Notes: a model not told the origin generated them from the letters alone. A stretch of 64,000 nucleotides of DNA from an uncultured Actinomycetes bacterium (GCA_964618935.1 CAZUDL010000008.1:28870-92869), one strand, 5' to 3'. Positions 15,465 to 63,607 are shown, numbered from the stretch's first letter. Program-made: numbers and translations.

Positions 15465-15481
15465 GCTGCGATCGCGCCCCG

Positions 15482-16513: not shown

Positions 16514-16516
16514 CTC

Positions 16517-21598: not shown

Positions 21599-22695
21599 CG
21601 CCCGGCCGGTGGCCAGGCCCCGAGATCCAGCGGACCGCGGGCCACGACGCGTCCGGCCTGCGCCAGCCGGCCGATGTCGGCCGCCCCGGCGCAGAACATG
21701 GCGATGCGGAGGGTCTCGACGATCTCGGTGATGGCGCCGTCCAGCGTCTCCGGCCCGTCGTCGGCGGCACGGAGCATGGAGCCGGCGATGCCTCCGAGGT
21801 CGGCTCCCAGAGCGATGGCCATCGCCAGGTCGACGCCGCTGCGGATGCCGCCGCTGGCGATCAGCGTCGCCCCGGGGGCGGCACGGCGGGCGAGGTGGAT
21901 GGCATCGGCGGTGGGCAGCCCCCAGCCGGCGAAGGCGGCGGCGACGCGGGCCCGCACCGGGTCGTGCATGCGGTGCCGCTCCACCTCACTCCACGACGTG
22001 CCCCCTGCACCCGCCACGTCGACGGCACCCACGCCCGCCTCGACGAGCGCCGCCACCAGGTCGGGGGCGATTCCCCACCCGACCTCCTTGACGATGACCG
22101 GGACGCCGAGCGTCGCGCACAGCCCCTCGATGCGGCGCAGGAGCCCGTCGAACCGGGTGTCCCCCTCCGGCTGCAGGGCTTCCTGTAGGGGGTTCAGGTG
22201 GAGCACGAGGGCGTCGGCGTCCAGCAGGTCCACGATGCGCCGGCACCCGGTCACGCCAACCCCCATGTTGAGCTGCACCGCTCCCAGGTTGGCGAGCAGG
22301 GGCACGCTCGGACAGAGGTCGCGGACGGCGAAGGTGGGCAGCACCTCGGGGTGCTCGAGGAGCACGCGGCAAGACCCAAGGCCCATCGCCACACCGAAGC
22401 GCTCCGCCGCCCCGGCCAGGGTGCGATTGATCCGGCGCGCCTCCGCCGTGCCTCCGGTCATGCAGGAGAGGAGGAGGGGGGCCCGGAGACGCCTCCCCAG
22501 GAACACCGTGGCCGGGCTCACGTTGTCGAGGTCGATCTCCGGGAGGGCACGGTGGACGAACCGGTACCGTTCGAAGCCGGTGGTCACGCCGGTGGCGTCG
22601 ACGTCTTCCTCGAGGTTGATGCGGATGTGGTCCGCCTTCCGATCGACGATGCCAGGCGCGCGGGCGGGGCGGGAGGAGGCGCTGCCGACAGCCAC
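21595..22695 (-). CDS. fni: Type 2 isopentenyl-diphosphate delta-isomerase (FMN)
   Basis: RKADHI, SCMTGG, NLGAVQL, HLNPLQE..QPEGD, KEVGWG, AGAGGTSW, ASGGIRSG. Confidence 0.95.
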   Translation of the reverse strand: MAVGSASSRPARAPGIVDRKADHIRINLEEDVDATGVTTGFERYRFVHRALPEIDLDNVSPATVFLGRRLRAPLLLSCMTGGTAEARRINRTLAGAAERFGVAMGLGSCRVLLEHPEVLPTFAVRDLCPSVPLLANLGAVQLNMGVGVTGCRRIVDLLDADALVLHLNPLQEALQPEGDTRFDGLLRRIEGLCATLGVPVIVKEVGWGIAPDLVAALVEAGVGAVDVAGAGGTSWSEVERHRMHDPVRARVAAAFAGWGLPTADAIHLARRAAPGATLIASGGIRSGVDLAMAIALGADLGGIAGSMLRAADDGPETLDGAITEIVETLRIAMFCAGAADIGRLAQAGRVVARGPLDLGAWPPAGR

Positions 22696-22699
22696 CGGC

Positions 22700-23791
22700 T
22701 CACCTCATCCGATGGGCAACGAATTCGGTGATGGCGGAGAAGTCGTCGATCCAGTGGCGTTCGAGGCCCGAGCTGGCCACCGCGGCGACGGCGGCGTGGG
22801 CGGTCTGGGTGGTGGCGGCGGCGCTCGCCGCCGGTTCGCCGAGCCCGGCCAGGATGTCGCGGATGCGCCGCTCGCCGTCCTCGGCGTCCGACTCCGAGAA
22901 GAGGCCGCAGAGGTCGCGCTGCTCGTCGTAGGAGGCGCGCGAGTAGGCGCTGATCACCGGGTAGGTCGGCTTGCGGCGGGCCAGGTCGGTCTCCCGTCCC
23001 TTGCCGGTCCGCTGCGGGTCCCCGAAGGTGCCCAGCCAGTCGTCGCGCATCTGGAAGGTCTGGCCCAGCAGGCGCCCGGCGCTGCGCAGCTTGCCGACGG
23101 TCCTCGCCGACGCGCCGGCGAGGATCGCCCCCATCTCCAGGCTGGCGCCGAGGAGCGCCCCGGTCTTGGCGGTGATGAGGCGGACGTAGGTGGCCCGGGG
23201 GGTGTCCGGCCGGCCCTCCAGGGCAAGGTCGAGGCACTGCCCCTCGATGACCTCGAGCGCCGCCTGGCTCAGGCTGCGGGCGGCGCGCATCCGCCGATCG
23301 GCGCGCGGTCCCGGCGCCAGCAGGGTCATGTACGCGGTGGCGAAGAGGCCGTCCCCCACGTTGATCCCCTGAGCCGCTCCCCAGATCGCCCACACCGTCG
23401 GCCGGTGCCGCCGTTGCACGTCGCCATCCTGGATGTCGTCGTGGACCAGGGTGAAGTTGTGGATCAGCTCCACCGAGGTGGCGGCGGGGATCCCCCAATC
23501 GACCTCGCCGCCGCATGCCTCGCAGGCCCAGAGGGCGAGGGCGGCCCGCAGCAGCTTGCCGCTGCCGCCCGCCGTGGGCTGGCCGTCGGGGCCCACCCAG
23601 CCGAGGTGGTAGGCACACATCTTGCCCAGCGGCGACGTCTGCACCGGCAGCGCCCAGCGCAGCGCCTCGTCGATGAGGGGGAGGTGGCGGCTCAGCGAGC
23701 GAGGCAGCTCGGGGCCGGCGTCGTCGGGCCGGACGAGGGGTTGGTCGATGGTGTCGGCCGCTTGGAACGGTGCATCGACTACGACGGACAT
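22700..23791 (-). CDS. Short-chain polyprenyl diphosphate synthase (FPP/GGPP)
   Basis: GSGKLLR, HNFTLVHDDIQD (FARM), RRHRP, KTG, FQMRDD (SARM); GGAGG before ATG 23791. Confidence 0.92.
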   Translation of the reverse strand: MSVVVDAPFQAADTIDQPLVRPDDAGPELPRSLSRHLPLIDEALRWALPVQTSPLGKMCAYHLGWVGPDGQPTAGGSGKLLRAALALWACEACGGEVDWGIPAATSVELIHNFTLVHDDIQDGDVQRRHRPTVWAIWGAAQGINVGDGLFATAYMTLLAPGPRADRRMRAARSLSQAALEVIEGQCLDLALEGRPDTPRATYVRLITAKTGALLGASLEMGAILAGASARTVGKLRSAGRLLGQTFQMRDDWLGTFGDPQRTGKGRETDLARRKPTYPVISAYSRASYDEQRDLCGLFSESDAEDGERRIRDILAGLGEPAASAAATTQTAHAAVAAVASSGLERHWIDDFSAITEFVAHRMR

Positions 23792-44703: not shown

Positions 44704-46434
44704 TCAGGCCGGGGGCGGGGAGGGGTCGGCGCTGGCCGCGGCGATCGCCTCGCGGACGCCGTGGTGGATGTGGTCGGCGGCGACCAGGCCGAGGATGCCG
44801 TAGCGCTCGAGGACGTCCTGGATGTCCTCGACGTGGGCGAGGTGGACGGCGATGGCGCCGTGCCCGAGGTTGCGCAGGAGCGTCAGCAGCATCTGTCCGG
44901 CGGTGTAGTCGATGTCGGCGATGGCCGAGAAGTCGAACGCCATCCAGGTGACCCGGTGGGGGGCCGCCTCCACCAGGCTGAGGACGCGGCCGCGGAAGTG
45001 TTCGGCGTTGGCGAAGAAGAGGGTGCTGTCGAAGCGGTAGGCGACGCCGCCCGGCATGGTCTCGAGGCCGGGCCGGGCCCGATGAGGGACGAGCTGGCCC
45101 TCGGGGTCGGCGGCGGCCACGATCACCGTGTCGCGCGGCCGGTAGGCGCGGCGCACGAAGTCGAGGACGGAGAGGCCGACGGCAAGGATGATGCCGGCCT
45201 CCACGCCGACGAGCACGACCATCAGGCCGGTGGCGACGGCGAGGGCGAACTCGTCGCGCCGCAGATGCCAGAGTTCGACGAGGTGGCGGCGGTCGATGAG
45301 GTGGACGCCGATGACGAAGACCACGGCGGCCAGGGTCGCCTCGGGCAGGAAGTGGAGGAGGCCGGTGGCGACGACCAGCACGGCGATGGTGATGGCGCCC
45401 GCGACGAGCTGCGAGAGCTGGGTGCGCTGCCCGGCGGCATCGACGACCGCCGTCTTCGTCGGGCTGCCGTTGACGCAGAAGGTGCCGGTCAGCCCGGCCA
45501 CGAGGTTGGCCCCGGCCAGCCCCACCAGATCGCGGTTCTCGTTGAGGTCCTCGCCGTGCTTCTGCGCGAAGCTGCGGGCCGTCGCCGCGCTCTGGGCGAG
45601 GACGACGACGAAGATCGACGCCGCGACGCCGGCCAGGCCGGGAACCTGCTGCCAGGAGACCTTGGGGAAGGTCACCGGCGGGAGCCCGCCAGGCACCGCG
45701 CCGATGATGGCGACGCCATGCCGGTCCAGGCGCAGCACCGCCGTCAGCACGATCGAAGCGGCGACGACGAGGAGGGCGCCCGGGACGCGTTTGGCGAAGG
45801 CCTCGATCAGCAGCAGCGCGGCCACTCCGGCGATGGCGAGGAGGGCGGCGGGGACGACGATCTGACCGGCGTGCTGCGCCAGCGTGGTGAGCTGGGCGAT
45901 GAGGCTGCCGCTGGCGTGGATGCCCAGCATCCCCGGCAGCTGGGTGAGGGCGACCTGGATGCCGACGCCGCTGAGGAAGCCGATGAGGGCGGTGCGCGAC
46001 AGGAAGTCGGCGAGGAAACCGAGGCGCAGCAGCCGCGCCACCAGCAGGTATCCCGCCGCCAGCAGGGCGACGACACCGGCGAGGGCGACGTACTCCTTGC
46101 TCGCCGGCTTGGCCATGGTGACCAGGGCCGCGAACATGATGGCGGCGGTCGCCGAATCGGCGCCGACGACGAGGTGGCGCGATGAGCCGAGGAGGGCGAA
46201 GACGATCGCCGGCACGGCCAGGGTGTAGATGCCGGTGATCACCGGCATGCCCGCGATCTTGGTGTAGCCCATCGACTCGGGAATGGCCACGGCGGCCAGG
46301 GTGGCGCCGGCGATGACGTCGGCGAGGAGGGTGGCACGGCTCGAGCCGTTCAGCCCCTGCGCCAGGCCGAGGATGCGGTCGGGCATGGATCGATGCACGG
46401 GGGGCGGCGGCGTGTTCCTCACGACGGCGCCCAC
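44704..46434 (-). CDS. SulP/SLC26 anion transporter with STAS domain
   Basis: GATLAAVAIPESMGY, GSSRHLVVG, NRDLVGLAGAN, NGSPTKT, RFDSTLFFANA; start uncertain (46434-46386). Confidence 0.93.
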   Translation of the reverse strand: MGAVVRNTPPPPVHRSMPDRILGLAQGLNGSSRATLLADVIAGATLAAVAIPESMGYTKIAGMPVITGIYTLAVPAIVFALLGSSRHLVVGADSATAAIMFAALVTMAKPASKEYVALAGVVALLAAGYLLVARLLRLGFLADFLSRTALIGFLSGVGIQVALTQLPGMLGIHASGSLIAQLTTLAQHAGQIVVPAALLAIAGVAALLLIEAFAKRVPGALLVVAASIVLTAVLRLDRHGVAIIGAVPGGLPPVTFPKVSWQQVPGLAGVAASIFVVVLAQSAATARSFAQKHGEDLNENRDLVGLAGANLVAGLTGTFCVNGSPTKTAVVDAAGQRTQLSQLVAGAITIAVLVVATGLLHFLPEATLAAVVFVIGVHLIDRRHLVELWHLRRDEFALAVATGLMVVLVGVEAGIILAVGLSVLDFVRRAYRPRDTVIVAAADPEGQLVPHRARPGLETMPGGVAYRFDSTLFFANAEHFRGRVLSLVEAAPHRVTWMAFDFSAIADIDYTAGQMLLTLLRNLGHGAIAVHLAHVEDIQDVLERYGILGLVAADHIHHGVREAIAAASADPSPPPA

Positions 46435-48791: not shown

Positions 48792-50441
48792 GTGCCCGGC
48801 GCGGAGGCGACGGAGGACGCGGTGGGACTGTCCGGGAACCCGGGCGCGGCCGGTGCAGCCGCCTCGGGACGCCATCCCTCCCCCGTCTCCCGGAGCGACG
48901 GCCCGGCGACCTCCGGTGTGGCAGGGGGGTTCCGCAGGCGGCTCTGGCTGATCGGGCCCGCCGCACTCTACTGCGTTCTCCGCCTCCCCTCCTTCTTCGA
49001 GCCGCACTGGTACACGGACGAGGCGGGCTACGTCGCCACCGCCCGCTCCATGCTCCAGGGCAAGACCCTCTACACCCAGATCTGGAACAACAAGCCGCCC
49101 CTCCACCTGTGGACCGTCGCCCTGGTGATCAAGTTCCTCGGCACCAGCGAGGCGGCGCTCCACTCGCTCACCTTCGTGAGCGGGCTGCTGACCCTCGCCG
49201 CCGTCGCCTACGCGTGCGACCGGGTGCTCGGCCGGCGGCGGACCGCCATCGCCCTCCTCGTCGCGGCCGTTCTCCTGGGCACGCCGATCCTCGACGCGGA
49301 GCTGCTCCTCCCCGAGAGCCTGCTGATCGCCCCCGTCACCTGGGCCGGGGCGATCCTCCTCCGTCGCTTCGCCGCGCCGGACGAGCGGGACTGGCCCCGC
49401 TGGCCCATCGCGGTGGGGGCGCTCGTGGCCGTCGCCATCGCCTACCAGCAGACGGCCGTGGCGGAGGCCTGCGCCTTCGGTTTCATCCTGCTCGTCACGT
49501 CGCGCGGCAACTGGCGGCGCTTCGCCGCCTACGCCATCACGGTGTCGGCGCTGACCGTCGCCTGGCTGATCCCGACCGTCCTCTCCGCCGGGCTGTCCAC
49601 CGCCAGCTATGCCCTCGTCGGGTTCTACGTCCACTTCACCCAGGGCAACTTCGCCGGGACGGCCGGCCTCCTCCTGCACCTGGTCCCCATCGTCGTCGCC
49701 TTCTCCCTGCTGGTGCTGTGCGCATGGTTCCGCCGGCACGATCGCGACCCGACCTGGGCGCTCTGGTTCTGGGCCGGCGCCGCCCTGCTGGTCCCCTCCA
49801 TCGCCCGTCAGCCCTACCCCCACTACCTGCTCCCCTCCGCGGTGCCGGTGGCCATGGCCATCTGCAGCCTCCGCCCGCTCCGCAGCAGGGGCGTCAGCCT
49901 GACCCAGAGGCTGACCGCCGCCGGACTCATCGCCGGGACGGCCCTGGTCCTCCCCGCGGCCGCCGTCACCGGGTTCAACTGGATCCCCTGGCCGGGGATC
50001 TCAGACCTGAGCCTGGCCACCTACTACGGGGGCGCGGTCCTGGTCGCCACCGGTGCGCAGTCGGATCAGTCCTGGGAGAACGAGTTCGACCTGCGGGTCG
50101 GCGAGGACCGGGCGGCGGCCGACTGGATCACCGGCCACGGTCTCCAGGGCACCTCCGCCGTCATCTGGTCGGCCGACGCCTGGCTCTACTCGATCAGCGA
50201 CTTCACCGTCCTCATGCCGACCCCTCCCATCTACAACGACGCCCCGCTGCTGGGAGGCTGGGACGCCACAGCGCAGCGGGTGGCCTCGCTCGATCCCGTG
50301 GTCGTCGTCACCGAGGGGACGACGATCGCGTCCTACCCCCAGATCGAGCCCCTTCTCGCCAGCTCCTACCGGGCCTGTGAGCAGAACGGGTCCGAGATCG
50401 TCTGGGTGCGGGACGACGTCGCACAGGCGCTGCTCGGGTGA
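48792..50441 (+). CDS. ArnT/PMT-like (GT-C) membrane glycosyltransferase
   Basis: WYTDEAGY (DE motif), IWNNKPP, PHYLLP, many TM helices; start uncertain. Confidence 0.7.
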   Translation: MPGAEATEDAVGLSGNPGAAGAAASGRHPSPVSRSDGPATSGVAGGFRRRLWLIGPAALYCVLRLPSFFEPHWYTDEAGYVATARSMLQGKTLYTQIWNNKPPLHLWTVALVIKFLGTSEAALHSLTFVSGLLTLAAVAYACDRVLGRRRTAIALLVAAVLLGTPILDAELLLPESLLIAPVTWAGAILLRRFAAPDERDWPRWPIAVGALVAVAIAYQQTAVAEACAFGFILLVTSRGNWRRFAAYAITVSALTVAWLIPTVLSAGLSTASYALVGFYVHFTQGNFAGTAGLLLHLVPIVVAFSLLVLCAWFRRHDRDPTWALWFWAGAALLVPSIARQPYPHYLLPSAVPVAMAICSLRPLRSRGVSLTQRLTAAGLIAGTALVLPAAAVTGFNWIPWPGISDLSLATYYGGAVLVATGAQSDQSWENEFDLRVGEDRAAADWITGHGLQGTSAVIWSADAWLYSISDFTVLMPTPPIYNDAPLLGGWDATAQRVASLDPVVVVTEGTTIASYPQIEPLLASSYRACEQNGSEIVWVRDDVAQALLG

Positions 50442-53783: not shown

Positions 53784-54905
53784 ATGCGTCGCACCCCCTT
53801 TGTCGGTGGCCGTCTCGGGCTGTCGATCGTCGTGATCGCCGTCCTGATGGCGTCCTCTCCGCCTCAACTCTCCGGCCCGCAGCCGCCGAGCCGGATGGCG
53901 GACGTCTACGACCTGGAGATCGCCGCTCTGCAGACCCAGTACGACGCCCTCGGCGCCCAGATCCAGTCCCTCCTCGCTGATCAGACCGCGGCGTCCGCCC
54001 AGGCGGCGGAGGTCCAGGCGCAGGTGACCGCCACCCAGCAGAGCATGCAGACCGTCGAGACGCACATGACCCAGTTGAACGCAGCTCTGACGGCCACCAA
54101 TGCGGACATCCAGGCCGACACCGCCCGCCTCACCGCCGAGCGGAGCCAGCTCACCCAGCTGCTGGTGGCGATGTACACCGAGGGTGGTGGAAGCGCCCTC
54201 ACCGCCCTCGTCAGCAGCCAGAGCATCAGCCAGTTCATGACCCGCCTCGACGCCGTCCAGACGGTGGGGCAGAGGGTGCAGACGCTGATCGTCGCCGTGC
54301 GCACCGACGAGCAGAGCCTCGAGGTCCTGCGGCAGACGCAGCAGACGGATCTGACCGCGGCAGCGGCGTCGATGGCGCAGCTGGCCTCGCTGCAGAGCCA
54401 GCTTCAGGCCCAGCAGGCCCAGCTGCAGGCGCAGGTGGCGGCGCTCGGCGGCCAGGTCGCCGCCCTGCAGGGGCAGGCGCAGTCCCTGCAGAGCCAGATC
54501 GCCACCCTCCGCGCCGAGCAGGCTGCGGCCCAGGCCAGCGGCTATGGCGGCACCGTCCTCCAGCCCTTCGCCTTCGGTCCCATCAACGACGACTACCCGT
54601 GGGGCCAGTGCACCTGGTACGTCGCCTCGTTGCGCAACGTGCCCTGGATGGCCAACGCCAAGGACTGGCTGGAGTTCTCACAGTGGGACGGCTTCTCCAC
54701 GGGGATGACGCCGGAACCCGGCGCCATCGTCGTCTGGGGCGCGGGCCACGGATACAACGCGCTCTACGGTCACGTCGCCTACGTCGTCGCCGTGCAGAGC
54801 TCGTACCAGTTCACCGTGGACGAGGCCAACTTCTACCTGGTTCCCGGCCAGGTCGATCAGCGGCAGGTGAACACGCTGAACGACGTCGAGGGCTTCATCT
54901 ACTGA
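53784..54905 (+). CDS. Secreted coiled-coil + CHAP peptidoglycan hydrolase (PcsB/CwlO-like)
   Basis: Signal peptide, long Gln/Ala-rich heptads, YPWGQCTWYV (Cys), YGHVAYV (His), DEANF; TGcTATCCT upstream. Confidence 0.88.
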   Translation: MRRTPFVGGRLGLSIVVIAVLMASSPPQLSGPQPPSRMADVYDLEIAALQTQYDALGAQIQSLLADQTAASAQAAEVQAQVTATQQSMQTVETHMTQLNAALTATNADIQADTARLTAERSQLTQLLVAMYTEGGGSALTALVSSQSISQFMTRLDAVQTVGQRVQTLIVAVRTDEQSLEVLRQTQQTDLTAAAASMAQLASLQSQLQAQQAQLQAQVAALGGQVAALQGQAQSLQSQIATLRAEQAAAQASGYGGTVLQPFAFGPINDDYPWGQCTWYVASLRNVPWMANAKDWLEFSQWDGFSTGMTPEPGAIVVWGAGHGYNALYGHVAYVVAVQSSYQFTVDEANFYLVPGQVDQRQVNTLNDVEGFIY

Positions 54906-55634: not shown

Positions 55635-56696
55635 TCAGCGCAGGGAGGAGGGGAGGGCTTCCGCGTCGGTGAGGCGGCGCGCCACGGTCACCGCGTCGTC
55701 GAAGAGGGCCTGCGCCCCGACGACGTTGGCCTCAGCGCCGGAGTGAGTGCTGACCCGGACGCCGTCGACGCCGTCCCGAACCCTCCCGCCCTCGCGGTCG
55801 TAGACAGGCTGGCCCGCCGGGTTGCGACCGTCGAACCACGCCCGGGCAGCGGTGGCACGTTCTGCGTACTCCGGTTCACCGGAGACCGCGGCCAGACGGC
55901 TCAGCACATGGACCGCGGAGGCGACGTCATAGGGTTGCGTCCGTGGCAGGTCGAAGCCGGACCTGACGGCCGCGCCGAACACCAGCTCCGCGCTGCGGCG
56001 GGCGACGTCGAGGAGGTCGGGCCGGCCCAGGTGCACTCCGACATCGGCGAGCACCCCCTCCTGGATGTGGCCCCAGAGATGAGGGTGGTTCCGCTCGTCG
56101 GGCGAGTTCATCAGCACACCGCCGGCGCGGCATCGCAGCAGCTCGTCGGTCCAGGGCCGCAGCAGCCCGTCGAGGCCGTGGGCGTTGCCCCCCTCCGACA
56201 GCACCAGCGCCGTTCGCAGGTGGAGTGCGCGCACGTCGGTGGGCACGTCCACGGCGGTCACCACATGGGGCAGGCCCGCTCGCAGTGCCGCATCGATCCG
56301 CGGATCGGTCAGGACCTGTGACGCTCGAGCCAGGGCGAGCAGGGCTCGAGCCTGCCAGAAGTCGCCGCCGGGACGGGACGTCCGCCCGCCCCGATTGGGA
56401 GTCCCCTGCCAATCGAGGATGAAGTTCAGCCAGCGCCCGTCGGCCTCCTGCATGGCGAGGACGAAGTCGAGCAGCCCCTCGCACCACCGCAACACCCAGG
56501 GCAGCCGTGTCGCCTCCCACAGATCGCAGTACAGCTCGAGGGCGCGCGCGGCGTCGTCGACACAGGCCACGCCCTCGTAGCCGGCCTCCCGGGCGCGAAG
56601 CGGTTCATCCCTCTCGTTGGCGTACACGGCGATGGCGATCCCGCTGCCGCCGGCGACCGGGACGCCGCGCCCCAGCCGGGCGAGCTGCCTCAGCAC
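55635..56696 (-). CDS. Uncharacterised alpha/alpha-toroid-like (six-hairpin glycosidase-like) protein
   Basis: EGVACVDDAARAL, MQEADGRWLNF, WFDGRNPAGQPVYD..GG.VRDG, SGAEA; overlaps the stop of the GT4-GH130 gene by 7 nt. Confidence 0.6.
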   Translation of the reverse strand: MLRQLARLGRGVPVAGGSGIAIAVYANERDEPLRAREAGYEGVACVDDAARALELYCDLWEATRLPWVLRWCEGLLDFVLAMQEADGRWLNFILDWQGTPNRGGRTSRPGGDFWQARALLALARASQVLTDPRIDAALRAGLPHVVTAVDVPTDVRALHLRTALVLSEGGNAHGLDGLLRPWTDELLRCRAGGVLMNSPDERNHPHLWGHIQEGVLADVGVHLGRPDLLDVARRSAELVFGAAVRSGFDLPRTQPYDVASAVHVLSRLAAVSGEPEYAERATAARAWFDGRNPAGQPVYDREGGRVRDGVDGVRVSTHSGAEANVVGAQALFDDAVTVARRLTDAEALPSSLR

Positions 56697-59092
56697 GGTT
56701 GCAGTTGATCGAGGATGTCCTGAACCCTGAAGTCCGCCGCGGCGAGGACCGCGTCGGCCGCCCCGTAGTAGACCCGGATGCTCTCGCCCGCAGCATCCAG
56801 CGGGACGTGGCCGCAGGCGAAGACGACGTCGTTGAAGACACCGCTGCGTTCGTAGCCGGCGGTCGGCACCAGGATCGGTTCCGGCGACCGGGCGAGGACG
56901 TGAGCGGGATTGTCGGCGTCGAGCAGCAGCCCCCCGAGCGCGTAGCGGGTGTTGCGATCGACCCCGTGGTAGATCTCCAGCCAGCCGCCCGGGACGCGGA
57001 AGGGGACCGCACCGGCGCCGGTGCGCAACTCGTCCCACATGCCGGGGCGGGGCAGCGCCAGCGGGGCGTGGTCCCCCCAGTGGACGAGGTCGTCGGAGAA
57101 CGCGATCCACATGCCGAGGACCCGGCCGAAGGACTGCGGCATGGGACGCGTGAAAGCGGCGAAGCGGCCGCCGGTGCGGCCGGGAAAGAGCACCACGTCC
57201 TTGTGGTCGGGCAGGAAGAGGATCCCATGGCGCTCGAACGACCGGAAGTCGGTCGTGGTCAGGCGGCTGGTGGTCACTCCCAGACGGCTCACCGACACGT
57301 ACGTGATGTGCCAGACGCCGTCGATGAGCGTCGCCCGGGGGTCCTCGCAGCCGTACTCCTCGAAGCGGTTCTCGGGGACCAGGGCCGGCTTCTCCTCCAC
57401 CTCGAAGTGGACTCCGTCGCGGCTCCTCGCCACACGGAGATGCGACATCTGGGTGAGGAAGTCGCTGACGTCGTCGGCCGCCGCGGTGAAGCCCCCGGTG
57501 AGGTTGCGGTAGCGGATGGACCGCGGGTCGCTGAGGTCGAGCCCGGGCGTGTCCCGGGGGATGAACACCTCGACGACGCGGGCCGGCTGGTGCTCGGAGT
57601 CGAGCAGGGCGATGGCGATGACGTCCTCGGCGCCGAAGCCCGGGCCCAGGGGCTTGAGCTCCGGCTCCGGGCGCGACAGGTCGAGGGTGAGCGCGTCCGC
57701 CGGGGGGACGGTGCCGGCCGACGGGCGTTCACCGACGCGCAGCAGCAGCACCACCTCGCCGTCCACGCGCGCCGCCGCGGCGTTGAAGACGGAGACGACC
57801 TCCAGGCCGGGCAGCGATGGGCGGACGTCGGACGGGCGCAGGATGGGGTTCTCACGCAGCCGGCGCCCCAGGTCGGCGTCGGGGTCCGCCGGTCGGGCTG
57901 CACGCCGCTGGAGCGGCGGGGTCCGGACCACCTCCTCCATGACGTCGAGGAAGGCCCGCGCCGAGCGCGGCCAGGTCGCGTCGTGGGCGTAGGCGAAGGC
58001 CGCCCGCTCCAGGGACTGCTTCGTCGCCGGCTCGCTCAGGATGGTCGATACGGCGCGTCCCAGCTGCAAGGGATCACGGAAGTCGACGAGGACTCCGCGT
58101 CCGTCGCTCAGCGCCTCGCGGGCATGCAGGTAGCGCGTCGACACCACCGCCTTGCCGGCGCCCAGCGCGTAGGAGAGCGTCCCGCTGGTGATCTGGTTGG
58201 GATCGAGATAGGGGGTCACGTAGACGTCGGTGGCGAGCAGCAGTTCGATGATGTCGGGCTGGCTCATGTAGGTGTCGATGAAGGCCACGTGGTCGTCCAG
58301 GCCCAGCTCGTGCGTCTTCGCCACCAGGGCGTTGCGATAGGTCTCGCCCTGTGCCCGCAGCAGATCGGGGTGGGTCTGGCCGGCGATGAGGTAGAGCGCG
58401 CCGGGATGCGCTTCCAGCACCGCCGGCATGCCCTCGATCATGTACTCGAGACCCTTGCGCGGGTCGACCAGGCCGAAGGTCGAGATCAGCGGGCGACCCT
58501 CCACGCCGAGCTTGCGCTTGAAGCGCACCCTGCCGTGCGGCTGGATCACCGGCATGCCGTGGGGGATGACCCGGGGAGGCTTGGCCAGTCCGTAGTCCAT
58601 GGACAGCAGGTCGATGGCGGTGGACGCCATGACGATGACCTCGTCGCTGAGGTCGGCGATGGCGCGCACCGCCGTCCGGATCGACGCCGACGGCTTGGGG
58701 AGGACCGTGTGCATGGTCGTCACCACCGGCTTGCGCAACTCCTCAAGGAAGAGATGGAGGTTGTCCTCGTAGGCGCCGTCGGTCCAGTGGCCGGCGATGA
58801 ACTTCGATTCCGTCCACGTGCCGTAGAGACCGAACTCGTGCTGCACGTTGACGGCGTCGGCATTCGAGGCGTTGATCGATCGCGCCGCCGCGCGGTAGCT
58901 CTCGGGGTCGCCCTGGCGGATCCGCCAGCGGACCTCGGAGGCGTACGGCCGCCGCACCGTGGGCTCCTCGATGGCGGCGATCCGGCAGGTCGTGGTGGGA
59001 TCGCTGGTGCGCACCGCGGCGATGAGGTCGGCGCAGAACGTGGCGATGCCGCAGCGGCGGGGCACGGCGGAGGAGACGAAGGCGATGCGCAT
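56690..59092 (-). CDS. GT4 glycosyltransferase - GH130 mannoside phosphorylase fusion
   Basis: N-half: PRRCGIATF, QHEFGLYG, GLVDPRKGLE, TSGTLSYA; C-half: ENPIL, VFNAA, EDPR, KDVVLFP, TRP, RTGAG, YHG, VVFACG, YYGAAD; one 800-aa ORF. Confidence 0.87.
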   Translation of the reverse strand: MRIAFVSSAVPRRCGIATFCADLIAAVRTSDPTTTCRIAAIEEPTVRRPYASEVRWRIRQGDPESYRAAARSINASNADAVNVQHEFGLYGTWTESKFIAGHWTDGAYEDNLHLFLEELRKPVVTTMHTVLPKPSASIRTAVRAIADLSDEVIVMASTAIDLLSMDYGLAKPPRVIPHGMPVIQPHGRVRFKRKLGVEGRPLISTFGLVDPRKGLEYMIEGMPAVLEAHPGALYLIAGQTHPDLLRAQGETYRNALVAKTHELGLDDHVAFIDTYMSQPDIIELLLATDVYVTPYLDPNQITSGTLSYALGAGKAVVSTRYLHAREALSDGRGVLVDFRDPLQLGRAVSTILSEPATKQSLERAAFAYAHDATWPRSARAFLDVMEEVVRTPPLQRRAARPADPDADLGRRLRENPILRPSDVRPSLPGLEVVSVFNAAAARVDGEVVLLLRVGERPSAGTVPPADALTLDLSRPEPELKPLGPGFGAEDVIAIALLDSEHQPARVVEVFIPRDTPGLDLSDPRSIRYRNLTGGFTAAADDVSDFLTQMSHLRVARSRDGVHFEVEEKPALVPENRFEEYGCEDPRATLIDGVWHITYVSVSRLGVTTSRLTTTDFRSFERHGILFLPDHKDVVLFPGRTGGRFAAFTRPMPQSFGRVLGMWIAFSDDLVHWGDHAPLALPRPGMWDELRTGAGAVPFRVPGGWLEIYHGVDRNTRYALGGLLLDADNPAHVLARSPEPILVPTAGYERSGVFNDVVFACGHVPLDAAGESIRVYYGAADAVLAAADFRVQDILDQLQPC

Positions 59093-59131: not shown

Positions 59132-59623
59132 TCACTGCACGGAGACCCGCGCCTGCCACTCGGCGCAGGGCTCGCAGAGGGTGCGCAGCCCCACCGCGCT
59201 GCGCACCGTCCCGGCCGGGGAGGCCTCGGGGCTCACGAAGCCGAAGCCGATGTCCCCGACGCCGCAGCTGCGGCAGCGCACCGAATTGGGCAGGGTGCTG
59301 AAGGAGAACCGGTCGCCCTGGATGACCAGCTCGCGGGGGGGATGCGGGTTGAAGCTGGCGGCGGAGACGAGATGGCGCCTCGACCCGGGAGGCGGCTCGG
59401 CCCTCGGCCATTCGGCGGTGGGATGGAGGCCGCGGATCACCTCGAGCTGGCCCGACAGGCCGTGGCGCCGCACGGCGACGACCGGCACGGGCAGGCCGTC
59501 CCCGGTGCTGTGCCCGGGAACCGGGTGGGGCAGCACCTGCCAATGATCTGCGCCCACGCCCTCCGCGTCCCGCCCGGCCGGAGACCGCCGCGCTCCGAGG
59601 AGACGCGCCAGCCTAGACGTCAT
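59132..59623 (-). CDS. 163-aa hypothetical protein with C-terminal CxxC/CxxC
   Basis: High GC3 codon pattern; CRSC and CEPC; start overlaps the phd-like stop by 11 nt. Confidence 0.65.
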   Translation of the reverse strand: MTSRLARLLGARRSPAGRDAEGVGADHWQVLPHPVPGHSTGDGLPVPVVAVRRHGLSGQLEVIRGLHPTAEWPRAEPPPGSRRHLVSAASFNPHPPRELVIQGDRFSFSTLPNSVRCRSCGVGDIGFGFVSPEASPAGTVRSAVGLRTLCEPCAEWQARVSVQ

Positions 59624-59876
59624 GGAGGCTGCCCCGCGGATGCTGCGGCAGCGAGGTCCCTCCAGGGTGGGCGGTGCGCCCGAGATCGGCGCCGGCCGCG
59701 GCGAGGTCGGGGACCTGGGTGAGGATCCAGTCCTCGAGGGCGGCCTCGTCGATGGGGATGAGGGCGACCACCGGCCTGCCGTTGCGGGTCACCAGGGCGG
59801 GACGGCGGGAGGATTGGACCCCCTGGATCACCGAGGTGGTGTTCCGGGCGAGATCGCGGACGCTGACGGTCGGCAT
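59613..59876 (-). CDS. Phd/YefM-family antitoxin-like DNA-binding protein (probably leaderless)
   Basis: MPTVSVRDLARNTTSVI...PALVTRNGRPVVALIPID; TATGCT 6 nt before ATG. Confidence 0.8.
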   Translation of the reverse strand: MPTVSVRDLARNTTSVIQGVQSSRRPALVTRNGRPVVALIPIDEAALEDWILTQVPDLAAAGADLGRTAHPGGTSLPQHPRGSLHDV

Positions 59877-59882
59877 GAGGCC

Positions 59883-59910
59883 AGCATACGCCTTGTCAGA
59901 CAATTGTCAG
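59883..59910 (-). promoter_or_regulatory. phd promoter with overlapping palindromic operator
   Basis: -10 TATGCT (59888-59883), -35-like CTGACA (59910-59905); palindromes TTGTC-A-GACAA (59893-59903) and GACAATTGTC (59899-59908). Confidence 0.7.
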
Positions 59911-60042: not shown

Positions 60043-60117
60043 TGGCTGGGGAGGTAGGATTCGAACCTACGATTGGCTGATCCAGAGTCAGCTGCCTTAC
60101 CACTTGGCCACTCCCCA
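60043..60117 (-). tRNA. tRNA-Gln (anticodon CTG), CCA encoded
   Basis: TGGGGAG/CTCCCCA acceptor stem, GCTGA-CTCTGGA-TCAGC anticodon arm, GTAGG-TTCGAAT-CCTAC T arm; TACACT -10 at 60136-60131. Confidence 0.97.
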
Positions 60118-60648: not shown

Positions 60649-61434
60649 TCACCCAGGCCGGTTCGCCGCCTCCCTCCTGGTGGGCAGCGACCGGCGGATC
60701 CGAAGGCGGAAGACGAAGAGCTCCTTGATGGCGCGGGCGATGGCCCGCGGCCGGGCGCCGGACCGCCGCCCCGCCACCCGGGGGTGATGGGGGATGGGGG
60801 CCTGGGCGATGCGCCAGCCCGCGTAGCGCGCCTTGTAATAGAGCTCGGCGTTGATCAGGGCGCTGCGCGCCTCCAGGGTGAGGGAGTCGAGAACCTCGCG
60901 GCGCATCAGCTTGAGGGCGCAGTCGACGTCCCGGTAGGGGAGCCGGTAGAGGATGGCGACCAGGGTGTTGAAGATCCAGCTCACGACCTCGCGGGCGCGG
61001 GCGTCCTTGCGCTTCTCCCGCCATCCCGCCGCCAGGTCGGCGCGGTCCAGCAGCGGGACGAGGCGGGCGAGGTCGGCGATCTCGAACTGTCCGTCGGCGT
61101 CGGTGAAGGCGACGAAGTCACCGGTGGCGGCGCGCAGGCCGTCCCCCACCGTGGCGCCGTAGCCGCTCTTCTGCGCGTGGCGAACGATGGTGAGCCGCAT
61201 CCCCAATTCGGCCGCCAGGGCGGTGGCGGCGGGGCCGCTGCCGTCGGTGCTGCCGTCGTCGACGATGACGATGTCGTGGCGGCTGGCGAGCGTCGGCAGG
61301 ACCTCCGCGGCGTGGGGCAGCAGCCAGCGGAGGTTCTCCACCTCGTTGTGGACGGGGAGCACCAGCGTCAGGCCGCTGAGGAGCGGCCCGGCCGGTTGCC
61401 CGGCGGGCTCACCCTCGGATCGCGCGGCGGTCAC
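60649..61434 (-). CDS. GT2 glycosyltransferase, DPM1/polyprenol-phosphate glycosyltransferase-like
   Basis: LPVHNEVENL, IVDDGSTDGS, GYG, FTDADGQF, DVDCALKLMRR; GTGA overlap with sqdB. Confidence 0.88.
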   Translation of the reverse strand: MTAARSEGEPAGQPAGPLLSGLTLVLPVHNEVENLRWLLPHAAEVLPTLASRHDIVIVDDGSTDGSGPAATALAAELGMRLTIVRHAQKSGYGATVGDGLRAATGDFVAFTDADGQFEIADLARLVPLLDRADLAAGWREKRKDARAREVVSWIFNTLVAILYRLPYRDVDCALKLMRREVLDSLTLEARSALINAELYYKARYAGWRIAQAPIPHHPRVAGRRSGARPRAIARAIKELFVFRLRIRRSLPTRREAANRPG

Positions 61435-62642
61435 CGCGTGGGGGCGGTGGCCAGCGGCGGAGCGGCCGGCTCCCCGGTGTAGAGGCCGCCGCCCTTGCGC
61501 CAGTCGACCTTGGCGTCCACGGTGTTCCGCCGGACCCGGTGGATGTTGCCCTCCACCGTCTGGACGACGCTGTCGATCAGCGTGTCGCTCAGCGAGTGCG
61601 GCTCCAGGCCGAGGTCGAGGAGGTGCTGGTGCTTCGCGTTGTAGTAGTGCTCCTCCTTCTCCCGGCGCGGGTTCTCGACGTGGTGGATCGTCGTCGGCAG
61701 GCCGTGGGCGGCGCGGGCGTGGGCCACCTTCTCCGCAAGTCCCAGTACGGAGAACTGCTCGGTGAACTGGTTGTAGACGCGGTACTCGCCCGCCGCGGGC
61801 GGGTTGAGGGCCGCCAGCTCGACGCAGCGCACCGTGTCCCGGATGTCGAGGAAGCCCCTGGTCTGCCCGCCCTTGCCGTAGACGCTGAGCGGCTCGCCGA
61901 TGGCCGCCTCCACGCAGTAGCGGTTGAGGACCGTGCCCCAGATGCCGTCGTAGTCGAACCGCGTGGTCAGGTCGGGATGCAGCGCGGTCTCTGCGGTGGT
62001 GATGCCGTAGACGACCCCCTGGTTCAGGTCGGTGGCCCGGAGATCCCAGATGCGGCAGCCGAAGTCGAGGTTGTGGCTGTCGTGCACCTTGGAGAGGTGG
62101 TAGACGGACCCGGGCTGTTTCGGGTAGAGCATGCGGTCGTGGCGCCCGTTGTGGTCGACCTCGAGGAAGCCCTCCTCGATGTCGATGTTCGGGGTGCCGT
62201 ACTCGCCCATCGTGCCCAGCTTGATGAGATGGCAGTGGGGGGCGCGATCCCGCAGGGCATAGAGGAGACGGAGGGTGCCGACGACGTTGTTGACCTGGGT
62301 CTCCACGCCGTGCCGGGGGCTGATCATCGAGTACGGGGCGGACCGCTGCTCGGCGAAGTGGACGACGGCATCGGGTGGGGAGGCGCCGATCAGCTCGTCG
62401 AGGGCCCCCTCGTCGCAGAGGTCGAGCTCGTGCCATTCGATGGTCCGCCCGCTCACCTCGTGCCAGCGGGCCAGGCGCTCCGGCATGGAGGCGATGGCCA
62501 CCAGGCTGTCGGTGCCGCACTCGATGTCCCAGTGCCGGCGGACCAGGCTGTCGACGGCCACGACGTCATGCCCGCGGGCGGACAGGTGCAGAGCCGTCGG
62601 CCATCCGAGGTATCCGTCGGCACCAAGGACCACGATGCGCAT
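61431..62642 (-). CDS. sqdB: UDP-sulfoquinovose synthase
   Basis: GADGYLGWPTALHLS, HFAEQRSAPYSMI, KLGTMGEYGTPNIDIEEG, YHLSKVHDSHN, ATDLNQGVVYG, TVLNRYC. Confidence 0.93.
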   Translation of the reverse strand: MRIVVLGADGYLGWPTALHLSARGHDVVAVDSLVRRHWDIECGTDSLVAIASMPERLARWHEVSGRTIEWHELDLCDEGALDELIGASPPDAVVHFAEQRSAPYSMISPRHGVETQVNNVVGTLRLLYALRDRAPHCHLIKLGTMGEYGTPNIDIEEGFLEVDHNGRHDRMLYPKQPGSVYHLSKVHDSHNLDFGCRIWDLRATDLNQGVVYGITTAETALHPDLTTRFDYDGIWGTVLNRYCVEAAIGEPLSVYGKGGQTRGFLDIRDTVRCVELAALNPPAAGEYRVYNQFTEQFSVLGLAEKVAHARAAHGLPTTIHHVENPRREKEEHYYNAKHQHLLDLGLEPHSLSDTLIDSVVQTVEGNIHRVRRNTVDAKVDWRKGGGLYTGEPAAPPLATAPTR

Positions 62643-62644
62643 CC

Positions 62645-63607
62645 TCAGATCTCCCCGTGAACCGGCCTGGAGGCGGCCGCTGATGGCGATGGGCGCTCGG
62701 CGAAGTACCGGTAGGTCTCCGCGAGCCCCTGCTCGAGGGAAGTGTGCGACTCCCAGCTGAGACGTTGCTGAGCCCGGCCGCTGTCCAGGCAGGCCCGCGC
62801 CACCTCCCCCGGCCGGGCGGGCAGGAGTTCGGGCTCGAGGGACAGCCCCGACGCCCGGATGAGCTCGCCGACGACGGCGCGGACGCTGGTCTCCCGGCCG
62901 GTGCCCACGTTGACCGGCCCGCTCTCCGTCGCCGACAGCGCCGCCCGGGTGGCCCGGGCGATGTCGCCGACGTAGACGAAGTCGCGGGTCTGGAGGCCGT
63001 CGCCGTAGATGACCGGCCGCAGCCCCTGGGTCAGCCGGGTGGCCGAGATGGCCACCACGCCGGCCTCGCCGGTGCCGTCCTGGCGCGGCCCGTACACGTT
63101 GCCGTAGCGCAGGGCGATGGTGCGCAGGCCCCGGCGGCGGTAGGTCCAGAGGTAGGTCTCCTCGCACAGCTTCTCGGCACCGTAGGCGGACATGGGCGCC
63201 GGAGGCAGCTCCTCGGCGGCGGGGAGCCGCTCCGCCTCGCCGTAGATGGCCCCGCCCGAGGAGGCGATGACGATGGTCCCGCATCCCGCCCGTGCCGCCG
63301 CCTCGAAGCAGCCGACCGAGCTGGCGAGGACCCGGTGAACGTGGTCGCCGGGGTCGCGGAGCGCCCGGTTGACACCGCCCTTGGCGGCGAGATGGACCAG
63401 GGTCTCGGGTTTGAAGCGGAGCAGTGCCTCGGCCGCCTCGGAGCCGCCGGCGTCCGCGACCAGCATCTCCGCCGCGCCCGGGAGGCTGGCGCCGCAGGGA
63501 TGGGAGAGATCGTCGATGACCAGCACGTCCAGCCCGTCCGAGGCCAGCATCTCGACGAGGTGGCTGCCGATGAACCCGGCGCCACCGACCACCGCAACTC
63601 GCGTCAT
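62645..63607 (-). CDS. NAD-dependent epimerase/dehydratase (UDP-glucose 4-epimerase-like)
   Basis: GGAGFIGSH, SSGGAIYG, YGAEK, RYGNVYGPRQ, TRDFVYVGD. Confidence 0.88.
   Translation of the reverse strand: MTRVAVVGGAGFIGSHLVEMLASDGLDVLVIDDLSHPCGASLPGAAEMLVADAGGSEAAEALLRFKPETLVHLAAKGGVNRALRDPGDHVHRVLASSVGCFEAAARAGCGTIVIASSGGAIYGEAERLPAAEELPPAPMSAYGAEKLCEETYLWTYRRRGLRTIALRYGNVYGPRQDGTGEAGVVAISATRLTQGLRPVIYGDGLQTRDFVYVGDIARATRAALSATESGPVNVGTGRETSVRAVVGELIRASGLSLEPELLPARPGEVARACLDSGRAQQRLSWESHTSLEQGLAETYRYFAERPSPSAAASRPVHGEI

Follow-up and report, generated by a model that had tools for sequence, protein, structure and literature searches.

In Bacteroides and Ruminococcus, mannan catabolism employs a cellobiose 2-epimerase and a GH130 mannosylglucose phosphorylase, a pathway for which Senoura 2011 is reportedly the founding paper. 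It resembles the locus described here in combining an (α/α)6 toroid enzyme with GH130, and the next-closest structures to our toroid protein are AGE epimerases, but its linkage is β-1,4 rather than β-1,2. Short β-1,2-mannosides are the substrates of the GH130_4 phosphorylases Lin0857 of Listeria innocua (5b0p) and Uhgb_MS (9eqq), both single-domain proteins (PMC12814180). In Thermoanaerobacter sp. X-514, the cluster Teth514_1785-1796 likewise places GH130 β-1,2-mannoside phosphorylases beside a GT4 'GDP-mannose-dependent α-mannosyltransferase', but it also carries an ABC transporter, GH5 and a Man-1-P guanylyltransferase, is read as a salvage system, contains neither fusion nor toroid and has phosphorylases of GH130_6 (PMC4264767). 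The mannogen GT108 MTPs of Leishmania synthesize and phosphorolyze intracellular β-1,2-mannosides with a GH130-like fold and dual GT/GP chemistry; however, they form family GT108, have no GT4 or toroid partner and make a polymer, of DP 4-40 in L. mexicana (PMC4264767). CAZy lists GH130 proteins with several modules (GH130-GT81 and GH130-GH130), a rare precedent for GH130 joined to a glycosyltransferase, although the partner there is GT81, of the glucosyl-3-phosphoglycerate synthase type, rather than GT4, and a survey of 6308 GH130 sequences reports no GT4-GH130 combination (PMC7660257). It has been asked whether bacterial GH130 β-1,2 enzymes have any synthetic role (PMC12814180).

The window analysed here, a 64,000-nucleotide stretch of DNA from an uncultured Actinomycetes bacterium, contains a two-gene unit in which these activities appear to be joined. 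Its features are as follows.

56690..59092, minus strand: GT4-GH130 fusion gene (800 aa; ATG 59092-59090, TGA 56692-56690)
57908..59092, minus strand: GT4 domain with GT-B fold (residues 1-~395)
57866..57907, minus strand: inter-domain linker (residues ~396-409), variable columns between two conserved alignment blocks
56693..57865, minus strand: GH130 domain, GH130_4-like (residues ~410-800)
55635..56696, minus strand: toroid protein of the YPO2471 family (353 aa, GTG start at 56696), (α/α)6
56690..56696, minus strand: 7-nt gene overlap GTGCTGA, fusion stop TGA plus toroid start GTG

The ORF list and Pfam agreed with the first-pass annotation on an uninterrupted 800-aa GT4+GH130 ORF, on the minus strand at 56690-59092. 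Residues ~192-365 match Pfam Glycos_transf_1/Glyco_trans_1_4 (PF00534, 53.4 bits; PF13692, 51.3 bits, both over cut-off), and residues 551-797 match Glyco_hydro_130 (PF04041, 149.4 bits against a cut-off of 26). The overlap of its stop codon with a 353-aa toroid gene, also noticed at first pass, proved to be the shared 7-nt string GTGCTGA; read from the GTG at 56696, the toroid protein begins VLRQLARLG and continues to the motif CVDDAARAL. Of the 39 loci scored, the window counted, 25 show the identical -7 overlap, which implies that the fusion and toroid genes would be translationally coupled. Analysis of GC by codon position gave GC3 values of 0.93 for the fusion ORF and 0.87 for the toroid ORF with GC2 of ~0.5, by which both ORFs carry a coding signature in this 72% GC genome.

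The first-pass annotation had itself named an assembly artefact as a possible origin of the fusion. We examined 38 complete loci (37 related loci and the window). An uninterrupted GT4-GH130 frame was found in 28 of them, in as many species-level genomes, on contigs of up to 2.7 Mb. In addition, homologues spanning the full fusion length share 63-87% identity, and the clusters of such proteins at ≥63% number more than 120. This shared length and the intact frames together indicate that the fusion is not a chance event. Identical proteins are also on record: one entry of the protein collection (P0023) is 100% identical to the fusion product over 78% of the fusion, and another (P0121) is the whole toroid protein at 100% identity, on 20 contigs. 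An assembly artefact or chimera is thus ruled out by these recorded proteins and by 28 genomes in which the fusion is intact, the contig measuring 1.6-2.7 Mb in some of them. The two-gene unit is real and widely conserved. GH130 mannoside phosphorylases, proven or predicted, consist of a single module in more than 99% of cases (PMC7660257), which makes the conserved covalent joining of a GT to GH130 unusual.

The resemblance of the GH130 half to Lin0857, suggested at first pass, was confirmed by phmmer against the PDB, in which no solved structure matched better than 5b0p (E 1.9e-80); Uhgb_MS (9eqq) gave E 2.8e-69 and Teth514_1788 (9fj8) E 7.5e-49. The domain is, in sequence, nearest to GH130_4 (Lin0857, Uhgb_MS) and is not GH130_6-like. 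The putative catalytic Asp, D584 in YGCEDPR, is invariant in the fusion alignment and corresponds in position to the ED of Lin0857 and Uhgb_MS. The basic residues named at first pass as phosphate-binding are indeed retained in the alignment as R649, R690 and H709, in TRP (648-650), LRTG (689-692) and YHG (708-710); R649 and R690 align with R202 and R242 of Uhgb_MS, and YHG aligns with that of Lin0857 and Uhgb_MS. GH130 hydrolases carry Glu in place of basic phosphate-binding residues, and none of these three is changed to Glu. The markers of β-1,2 specificity are a Lys contacting O2 of the +1 mannose (K199 in BT3780, K184 in Uhgb_MS) and a Glu beside the catalytic Asp (PMC12814180, PMC4599007); the corresponding E583 and K631 are both invariant and match E136/K184 of Uhgb_MS and K199 of BT3780. 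The lid, D522-P523-R524-S525, aligns with D87-M90 of Lin0857 and D86-V89 of Uhgb_MS and is followed by an insertion of 8-12 residues relative to both. Catalytic Asp, Arg/Arg/His, E/K and lid Arg (R524 here) are all shared with these two enzymes (PMC12814180), from which the window domain differs by its fusion to GT4 and by the insertion after the lid. The NCBIfam β-1,2-mannobiose phosphorylase models scored below cut-off (NF050092, 352.6 against 550 bits; NF052550, 190.7 against 450 bits), and the exact substrate may differ.

The GT4 half was modelled by AlphaFold2 as a complete, well-folded GT-B (pLDDT 89.9), and its N-terminus, with no signal-peptide-like stretch, was modelled as the first GT-B β-strand. 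Foldseek with this model placed MshA, PimA, PimB', BshA and GlgM on top at TM 0.7-0.8, but gave no clue to donor or acceptor, as all retaining GT4 enzymes scored similarly. Two alignments showed PRxCGIA, QHEFG, K213-G214, THP and Q300x7Y308 to be invariant, of which K213-G214 occupies the phosphate-binding Lys position (G-x-x-x-x-x-K-G, after the first β-strand of the C-terminal domain). The usual motif of GT4 enzymes is EX7E. In the C-terminal domain of the window protein, the aligned positions are Q300 and Y308, and this QX7Y is invariant in both GT4-GH130 and GT4-toroid proteins. The half had been annotated at first pass as a nucleotide-sugar transferase; fold and profile place it in GT4, but with the canonical EX7E replaced, a nucleotide-sugar donor, like catalytic activity itself, has to be presumed.

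The toroid protein has no Pfam or NCBIfam match. Its AlphaFold2 model (pLDDT 80.7) retrieved 7tem as the top Foldseek hit (E 1.7e-12, TM 0.78), followed by AGE, GH76, GH127 and GH9 toroids, and its profile matched PDB 7TEM over the full length (E 3.2e-53, positions 3-338). This structure is YPO2471 of Yersinia pestis, a structural-genomics 'putative exported protein' of the same family with the DDxAR and NSGAES motifs in common. In contrast to the longer, 427-residue YPO2471, described as exported, the window toroid has no long hydrophobic stretch or signal-peptide-like sequence at its N-terminus, and represents a form of the family always paired with GT4 and GH130. The toroid homologue alignment identified D48, R51, F78, W287, D308 and G320-A321-E322 as invariant, and D48, R51, D308 and E322 are common to 7TEM. 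Ten longer relatives were scanned among the 150 best representative matches; CBM9 was found in five, a solute-binding domain in one and a GT4 fusion in none of the ten, GT4-toroid fusions having been found only via the related loci. The exported relatives fused to CBM9 or solute-binding domains point to a family of glycan-acting enzymes. An AGE-type epimerase was considered because of the cellobiose 2-epimerase, AGE and YihS structural neighbours and of H210xxE213, which resembles the H-x-x-E motif that accompanies the catalytic His pair of that superfamily, but was rejected as unlikely, as H210 and E213 are missing in three distant toroid homologues (L058, L071 and L079); in sequence, epimerases match only locally and weakly (E 2e-5). 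A GH76 α-1,6-mannanase, prompted by the DD motif, was also rejected, the window protein having no Pfam GH76 match and only local helical-hairpin similarity to GH76 (E 1e-4 to 1e-3), away from the DD motif at 47-48. The invariant Asp/Glu residues look glycosidase-like rather than like those of an AGE-type epimerase.

At first pass, the three domains had been said to recur together elsewhere, usually with GT4 fused to the toroid and GH130 separate, and this arrangement proved to be real and common: in all five loci examined from CPR bacteria or DPANN archaea, [GT4-toroid] and GH130 lie no more than 5 kb apart. Three further arrangements were found, namely [GT4-GH130] plus toroid in 28 loci, GT4, GH130 and toroid as split genes in 10 Chloroflexota-type loci, where the split point corresponds to the linker position of the fusion, and GT4, toroid and GH130 as separate genes in L071 and L079. 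Sequence comparison showed the toroids of differing arrangements to be homologous to one another. Such Rosetta-stone recurrence of the same domains in four arrangements is strong evidence that transferase, phosphorylase and toroid act in one pathway. The triad spans Dormibacterota, Chloroflexota, Actinomycetota, CPR bacteria and DPANN archaea, and thus both prokaryotic domains. By neighbour clustering of the 38 loci, no neighbour gene is conserved beyond the three domains; near these loci, no GDP-mannose synthesis, transporter or regulator gene is shared across lineages (synteny is lineage-specific only), and no conserved secretion gene, solute-binding protein or secreted glycanase was found. 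Correspondingly, a downstream methyltransferase and an upstream 163-aa ORF were rejected as partners, neither being conserved beside the module. In CPR/DPANN genomes, the triad adjoins a PGI/PMI-type isomerase and an HddA/fucokinase-like anomeric sugar kinase, which fit mannose or sugar-1-phosphate metabolism. An Rfam scan of the window detected tRNA-Gln only and no riboswitch or other element, and scanning for promoters and terminators brought up nothing informative close to the operon.

The first-pass annotation had envisaged a cycle of nucleotide-sugar transferase and phosphorylase. The bond that a retaining GT4 forms cannot be the one that an inverting GH130 cleaves; the two therefore cannot act as simple synthase and phosphorylase on a single linkage, and the product must contain at least two different linkages. 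We propose tentatively, as a reading just short of an even chance, that the module makes and recycles a short mannose-containing sugar in the cytoplasm as a self-contained three-domain cycle. The cytoplasmic placement is suggested by the N-termini, which are not signal-peptide-like, and by the lack of a conserved transporter or secretion gene nearby. The GT4 half, as a retaining GT-B transferase, would attach an α-linked hexose to a small acceptor, most plausibly mannose drawn from GDP-mannose. The GH130_4-like domain would add or remove β-1,2-mannose reversibly (α-Man-1-P + acceptor <-> Man-β-1,2-acceptor + Pi), a chemistry well supported by its conserved residues. The toroid, probably glycosidase-like through its conserved Asp/Glu, may trim or recycle the remaining linkage, and the fusion and gene overlap would hold the partners near one another at a fixed ratio. 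Overall, the module would both build and, by energy-conserving phosphorolysis, turn over a short mannose glycoside on the di- to tetrasaccharide scale, which could act as a compatible solute or small carbon reserve. The function had been called undescribed, and the searchable literature indeed yields no described GT4-GH130 module.

A β-1,2-mannan-like (mannogen-like) reserve or stress solute was the product suggested at first pass. Taken as a long intracellular β-1,2-mannan, it would need GT4 to make the primer and GH130 to elongate and phosphorolyze the chain. GH130 β-1,2 enzymes do elongate from Man-1-P and weakly from GDP-Man (PMC12814180), Teth514_1788 produces long chains, and the module is self-contained and apparently cytoplasmic. 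However, the domain is GH130_4-like rather than GH130_6-like (E ~1e-80/1e-69 against 7.5e-49 for Teth514_1788), and the GH130_4 lid (D-P-R-V/M), which blocks the +3 subsite and holds Lin0857 and Uhgb_MS to DP 2-3 (PMC12814180), appears to be kept here and even lengthened by the 8-12 residue insertion. Nor does the domain appear to be of the GT108 mannogen type, being a GH130 nearest to the short-chain subfamily, and we regard a long mannan as quite improbable. Synthesis of an envelope glycoconjugate, in which a PimA/PimB-like GT4 acts on a lipid or inositol acceptor, GH130 caps the product with a β-1,2-mannose and remodelling of the glycan falls to the toroid, is unlikely. The peripheral-membrane lipid mannosyltransferases PimA and PimB' are among the nearest GT4 structures, and the CPR/DPANN versions adjoin a PIG-L deacetylase and a second GT4, a pair typical of GlcNAc-inositol/GlcN-X pathways, but this pair is missing from the window and the 38 fusion-type loci, no conserved flippase, polyprenyl-phosphate or membrane genes lie nearby, and phosphorolysis is unusual in envelope assembly.

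Catabolic salvage of imported β-1,2-mannosides such as fungal mannan caps, as proposed for Lin0857 and the Teth514 clusters, would be consistent with the stand-alone, catabolic-type GH130_4 relatives of Paenibacillus, Cohnella and Listeria (40-47% identity) and with the pairing of GH130 with GT4 and Man-1-P guanylyltransferase in Thermoanaerobacter. It becomes very unlikely given that a conserved transporter, solute-binding protein or secreted glycanase is missing from all 38 loci and that a route serving degradation alone gives little reason for a glycosyltransferase to be covalently attached. The loss of both EX7E glutamates (Q300, Y308) in both fusion types could also mean that GT4 is a non-catalytic pseudo-GT that binds a ligand or regulates, tethering or controlling the phosphorylase. 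This too we consider highly improbable, as the N-terminal Gly loop, H85-E86, K213-G214 and THP are invariant across very distant lineages and AlphaFold2 gives the half a complete and well-folded GT-B structure (pLDDT 90), a pattern that fits a specialised active enzyme better.

Beyond the proposed cytoplasmic cycle, a bolder version, which we think quite improbable, is that the triad represents an ancient cross-phylum pathway for an undescribed glycoside, that the toroid founds a new glycoside hydrolase or glycan-rearranging family, that the QX7Y GT4 uses sugar 1-phosphates as acceptor or donor like GlgM, and that one fused domain passes Man-1-P straight to the other, bypassing any free nucleotide-sugar step. 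The module offers a concrete place to test the synthetic role of bacterial GH130 β-1,2 enzymes. It may also provide a role for the YPO2471 family, whose structure is already solved, a definition of a GT4 subfamily without EX7E, and a new sugar, solute or reserve, in Dormibacterota, which are abundant uncultured soil lineages, and in genome-reduced CPR/DPANN organisms; enzymes building β-mannosidic bonds are useful for synthesis as well. R690 is missing in a few family members (P0119, and also the GH130 of L079), which hints at a shifted phosphorylase/transferase balance in those members. P206 and N211 of Uhgb_MS, implicated in nucleotide binding, correspond to Q653 and V658 in the GH130 half of the fusion.

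Two overlapping genes make up the unit, in a window whose GC content is ~72% throughout:

56690-59092 (-): fusion gene, an uninterrupted 800-aa ORF
55635-56696 (-): toroid gene, GTG start at 56696, 353 aa, the next ORF after the fusion gene

The heptanucleotide GTGCTGA combines the toroid-gene start and the fusion stop in an overlap of 7 nt, and third-position GC (0.93 in the fusion, 0.87 in the toroid ORF) shows the bias typical of real genes in this genome. Pfam placed Glycos_transf_1/Glyco_trans_1_4 (GT4) at residues ~192-365 of the fusion, with a weak N-terminal match to Glyco_transf_4, and Glyco_hydro_130 at residues 551-797 (149 bits, cut-off 26). When the ORFs were re-read from the sequence, the coordinates, lengths and motifs quoted in the first-pass annotation all proved correct. 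Homologues of the fusion, each ~800 aa long, form more than 120 clusters among the 5.8 billion proteins searched (query coverage 94-100%, identity 63-87%), all containing both PF00534 and PF04041 and, where a source was named, assigned to Candidatus Dormibacterota, Chloroflexota, Acidimicrobiales or Candidatus Angelobacter. When each species was represented by one genome, 45 related loci emerged, and the GT4-GH130 frame was uninterrupted in 28 of the 39 scored, some of them on contigs of 1.6-2.7 Mb. These data rule out the assembly artefact that the first-pass annotation had named as a possible refutation and indicate that the fusion is real, with the anatomy described there and a wider reach than was known. 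From how its closest homologues are named, the source of the window is most likely of the Dormibacterota type.

The toroid gene directly follows the GH130 coding region in every complete locus, and the 7-nt overlap recurs in 25/39 scored loci. Clustering of flanking ORFs from 38 loci revealed no other conserved neighbours of the unit; synteny beyond it was confined to particular lineages and involved unrelated genes (rhodanese, molybdopterin oxidoreductase, VIT, two-component systems, a GGDEF/EAL protein). The three domains occur in four arrangements:

[GT4-GH130] + toroid: the window, Dormibacterota, Actinomycetota and Acidimicrobiales (28 loci)
GT4, GH130 and toroid as three overlapping genes: Chloroflexota/Limnocylindria-type loci (10)
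GT4, toroid and GH130 as separate genes: low-GC Actinomycetota MAGs (loci L071, L079)
[GT4-toroid] of ~735 aa + GH130: CPR bacteria and DPANN archaea

In all five CPR/DPANN loci examined, GH130 adjoins [GT4-toroid] or lies within 5 kb of it. Toroid homology extends across arrangements, as L079 matched the CPR/DPANN-type locus L058 in BLASTP (E 7e-56) and the window family aligned with L058 in hhalign (probability 97%, E 4.5e-11). The GT4-toroid fusion named in the first-pass annotation does exist, and the fusion in the window is permuted relative to it, as was proposed. Shuffling of fusion partners is a classic kind of evidence that proteins act together, which therefore applies to these three domains. 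Among related observations, Limnocylindria (L044 12701-13861; L042, L043, L046-L048) carry a second, stand-alone GH130 paralogue with 56-59% identity to the fused domain, adjoined by neither GT4 nor toroid in these loci. A record labelled Nitrosotalea sp. (L030) also holds a GT4/GH130/toroid locus ~61-64% identical to that of the window; its contig, of 5.8 kb, was assigned to a thaumarchaeal bin, probably through misbinning and not because of a transfer.

Among solved structures, the GH130 half matched the following, with Lin0857 at the top as the first-pass annotation had suggested:

Lin0857 (5b0p), GH130_4: E 1.9e-80
Uhgb_MS (9eqq), GH130_4: E 2.8e-69
Teth514_1788 (9fj8), GH130_6: E 7.5e-49
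Teth514_1789-type (7fip), GH130_6: E 8.2e-43
beta-1,4 enzymes: E 1e-30 or weaker

GH130 phosphorylases have three basic phosphate ligands, in place of which hydrolases have Glu, and beta-1,2 specificity is marked by a Lys equivalent to BT3780 K199 (PMC4599007); the E136/K184 pair marks beta-1,2/1,3 specificity, and a mannose at +3 collides with the GH130_4 lid (V89 in Uhgb_MS, M90 in Lin0857), which restricts products to DP 2-3 (PMC12814180). In the printed pairwise alignment with Uhgb_MS, R524 of the fusion corresponds to R88 in the lid, E583 to E136 and K631 to K184, while D584, in the EDPR motif, is the catalytic Asp. The basic residues previously proposed to bind phosphate are indeed kept, R649 and R690 corresponding to R202 and R242 and H709 lying within the YHG common to both proteins. 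Among 14 diverse fusion homologues, these seven positions (R524, E583, D584, K631, R649, R690, H709) show little or no variation. The lid stretch D522-P523-R524-S525 is kept and followed immediately by 8-12 extra residues, which may change its effect, and Q653 and V658 replace Uhgb_MS P206 and N211, positions implicated in GDP-Man use. The GH130 half thus has the catalytic Asp, the three basic phosphate ligands and the Glu/Lys pair by which GH130 phosphorylases and their beta-1,2-specific members were recognised, and we predict from its sequence, with fair confidence, an inverting beta-1,2-mannoside phosphorylase for short substrates. Because the half does not reach NCBIfam equivalog cut-offs, we call it GH130_4-like rather than a Lin0857 orthologue.

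The GT4 half is only remotely related to characterised GT4 enzymes (MshA, E 4e-7; PimB'/PimA, E ~2e-4). Its AlphaFold2 model, built with 20 homologues, is confident (pLDDT 89.9), and Foldseek matched it to retaining GT-B enzymes only, with similar scores (including MshA, PimA, PimB', BshA, GlgM, HepE, SPS and TreT). Profile and fold are those of GT4, but the EX7E motif is absent, Q300-x7-Y308 being invariant at its exact position in both fusion types. Also invariant in both types are the N-terminal PRxCGIA, QHEFG, PHG, K213-G214, THP and G-E-x-Y-R. The half represents a GT4 subfamily of its own, under strong constraint. Its sequence tells neither donor nor acceptor, and we infer GDP-mannose as a candidate donor from context only. 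The low-GC Actinomycetota loci have a second GT4 paralogue (~410 aa) immediately upstream of GT4-toroid-GH130 (L079 8662-9894, L071 1377-2603); it has the N-terminal PRxCGIATF of the triad GT4, yet in its EX7E region the first Glu is retained.

Searches of the toroid protein against Pfam and NCBIfam gave no match, and phmmer found a single solved relative, YPO2471 of Yersinia pestis (7TEM, E 3.9e-11), which a profile from 20 diverse toroid homologues matched over its whole length (E 3.2e-53). The AlphaFold2 model (pLDDT 80.7, low only at residues 1-43 and 94-111) contains twelve long helices. Foldseek ranked 7TEM first (TM 0.78), followed by AGE-family epimerases/isomerases and GH76, GH127, GH9 and GH88-type toroids (TM ~0.6, 10-15% identity). 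The helices and fold matches together indicate that the partner is an (alpha/alpha)6 toroid, as first guessed, and it belongs to the YPO2471 family. When homologues as distant as 18-23% identity are included, the sole invariant residues are D48 and R51 (DDxAR), F78, W287, D308 and G320-A321-E322 (GAES), and D47, N91, W114 and N292 are nearly invariant. An AGE epimerase and a GH76 were both rejected: the AGE-like H210xxE213 is not conserved among homologues, and the weak sequence matches to epimerases and to GH76 are local hairpins. Of ten longer relatives scanned, five carry CBM9 and one a solute-binding domain. We read the family as carbohydrate-acting with carboxylate-dependent catalysis, most simply a glycosidase, of which the copy in the window would be a cytoplasmic version.

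A retaining GT4 forms alpha bonds, and an inverting GH130 forms or cleaves beta bonds with alpha-Man-1-P. The two halves therefore cannot share a linkage, and the substrate or product must have at least two. In the most economical scheme, GT4 would place an alpha-hexose (perhaps mannose) on a small acceptor, GH130 would reversibly add beta-1,2-mannose from Man-1-P or free Man-1-P with Pi, and the toroid would hydrolyse the remaining bond; the GH130 chemistry is backed by sequence and we infer every other step. As a whole the mechanism is tentative, at slightly less than an even chance.

We favour an internal cycle that makes and turns over a short glycoside, rather than breakdown of glycans taken up from outside, because neither fusion nor toroid has a signal-peptide-like N-terminus (by inspection and the GT4 model only), neighbour clustering of 38 loci found no conserved transporter, the lid sequence is of the short-chain kind and a transferase is covalently attached. 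The mannogen-like polymer proposed earlier gives way to a short soluble mannoside as the more likely product, given that the sequence of the GH130_4 short-chain lid is kept. In CPR/DPANN, the triad neighbours a PGI/PMI-type isomerase, an HddA/fucokinase-like GHMP (anomeric) kinase, a PIG-L deacetylase, a second GT4 and a GH100/GDE_C-like protein, the cluster with GT4-toroid and GH130 recurring at L058 1223-9036, L084 5945-13293 and L086 6151-13195. These genes fit mannose or sugar-1-phosphate metabolism; with them, a glycolipid or a compound containing GlcN is also a candidate product in these lineages. The L058 cluster has an additional ROK-type kinase-like ORF, recognised by eye only.

In a survey of 6308 GH130 sequences, >99% were single-module, the only multi-modular CAZy entries were GH130-GT81 and GH130-GH130, and metagenomes also contained GH130 joined to other GH modules (PMC7660257). 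The literature searched, with most subscription journals outside its coverage, yielded no account of either the triad or a fusion between GT4 and GH130. The unit fits known kinds, namely sugar synthase/phosphorylase cycles and GH130 beta-1,2-mannoside metabolism; it includes one uncharacterised enzyme family (the toroid) and one atypical GT4 subfamily.

The window further contains:

14472-23791 (-): hopanoid biosynthesis cluster
44704-46434 (-): SulP sulfate permease
48792-50441 (+): PMT_2-type (GT39/ArnT-like) membrane glycosyltransferase
53832-54905 (+): PcsB-like coiled-coil + CHAP peptidoglycan hydrolase
59132-59623 (-): 163-aa ORF with two CxxC pairs
59613-59903 (-): 96-aa ORF, putative Phd/YefM-type antitoxin by sequence look
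60043-60117 (-): tRNA-Gln (CTG), the sole RNA family match in the window
60649-61434 (-): GT2 gene
61431-62645 (-): UDP-sulfoquinovose synthase-like gene (NCBIfam NF041015, E 3e-139, 464 bits, under the 575 cut-off)
62645-63592 (-): NAD-dependent epimerase

The end of the 163-aa ORF is 40 nt upstream of the fusion gene, and only the two closest relatives (L003, L004) conserve this ORF; the antitoxin-like ORF lies just upstream of it, with no obvious toxin gene beside it. The hopanoid cluster comprises NAD epimerase-like, radical-SAM + DUF3463 (HpnH-like), squalene-hopene cyclase, HpnE-like amine oxidase, FMN-dependent (IDI-2-like) and polyprenyl synthase genes and a 573-aa protein with two squalene/phytoene-synthase stretches. 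The UDP-sulfoquinovose synthase-like gene, its flanking GT2 and epimerase genes and the SulP permease 15 kb away suggest a sulfoquinovose-containing glycoconjugate.
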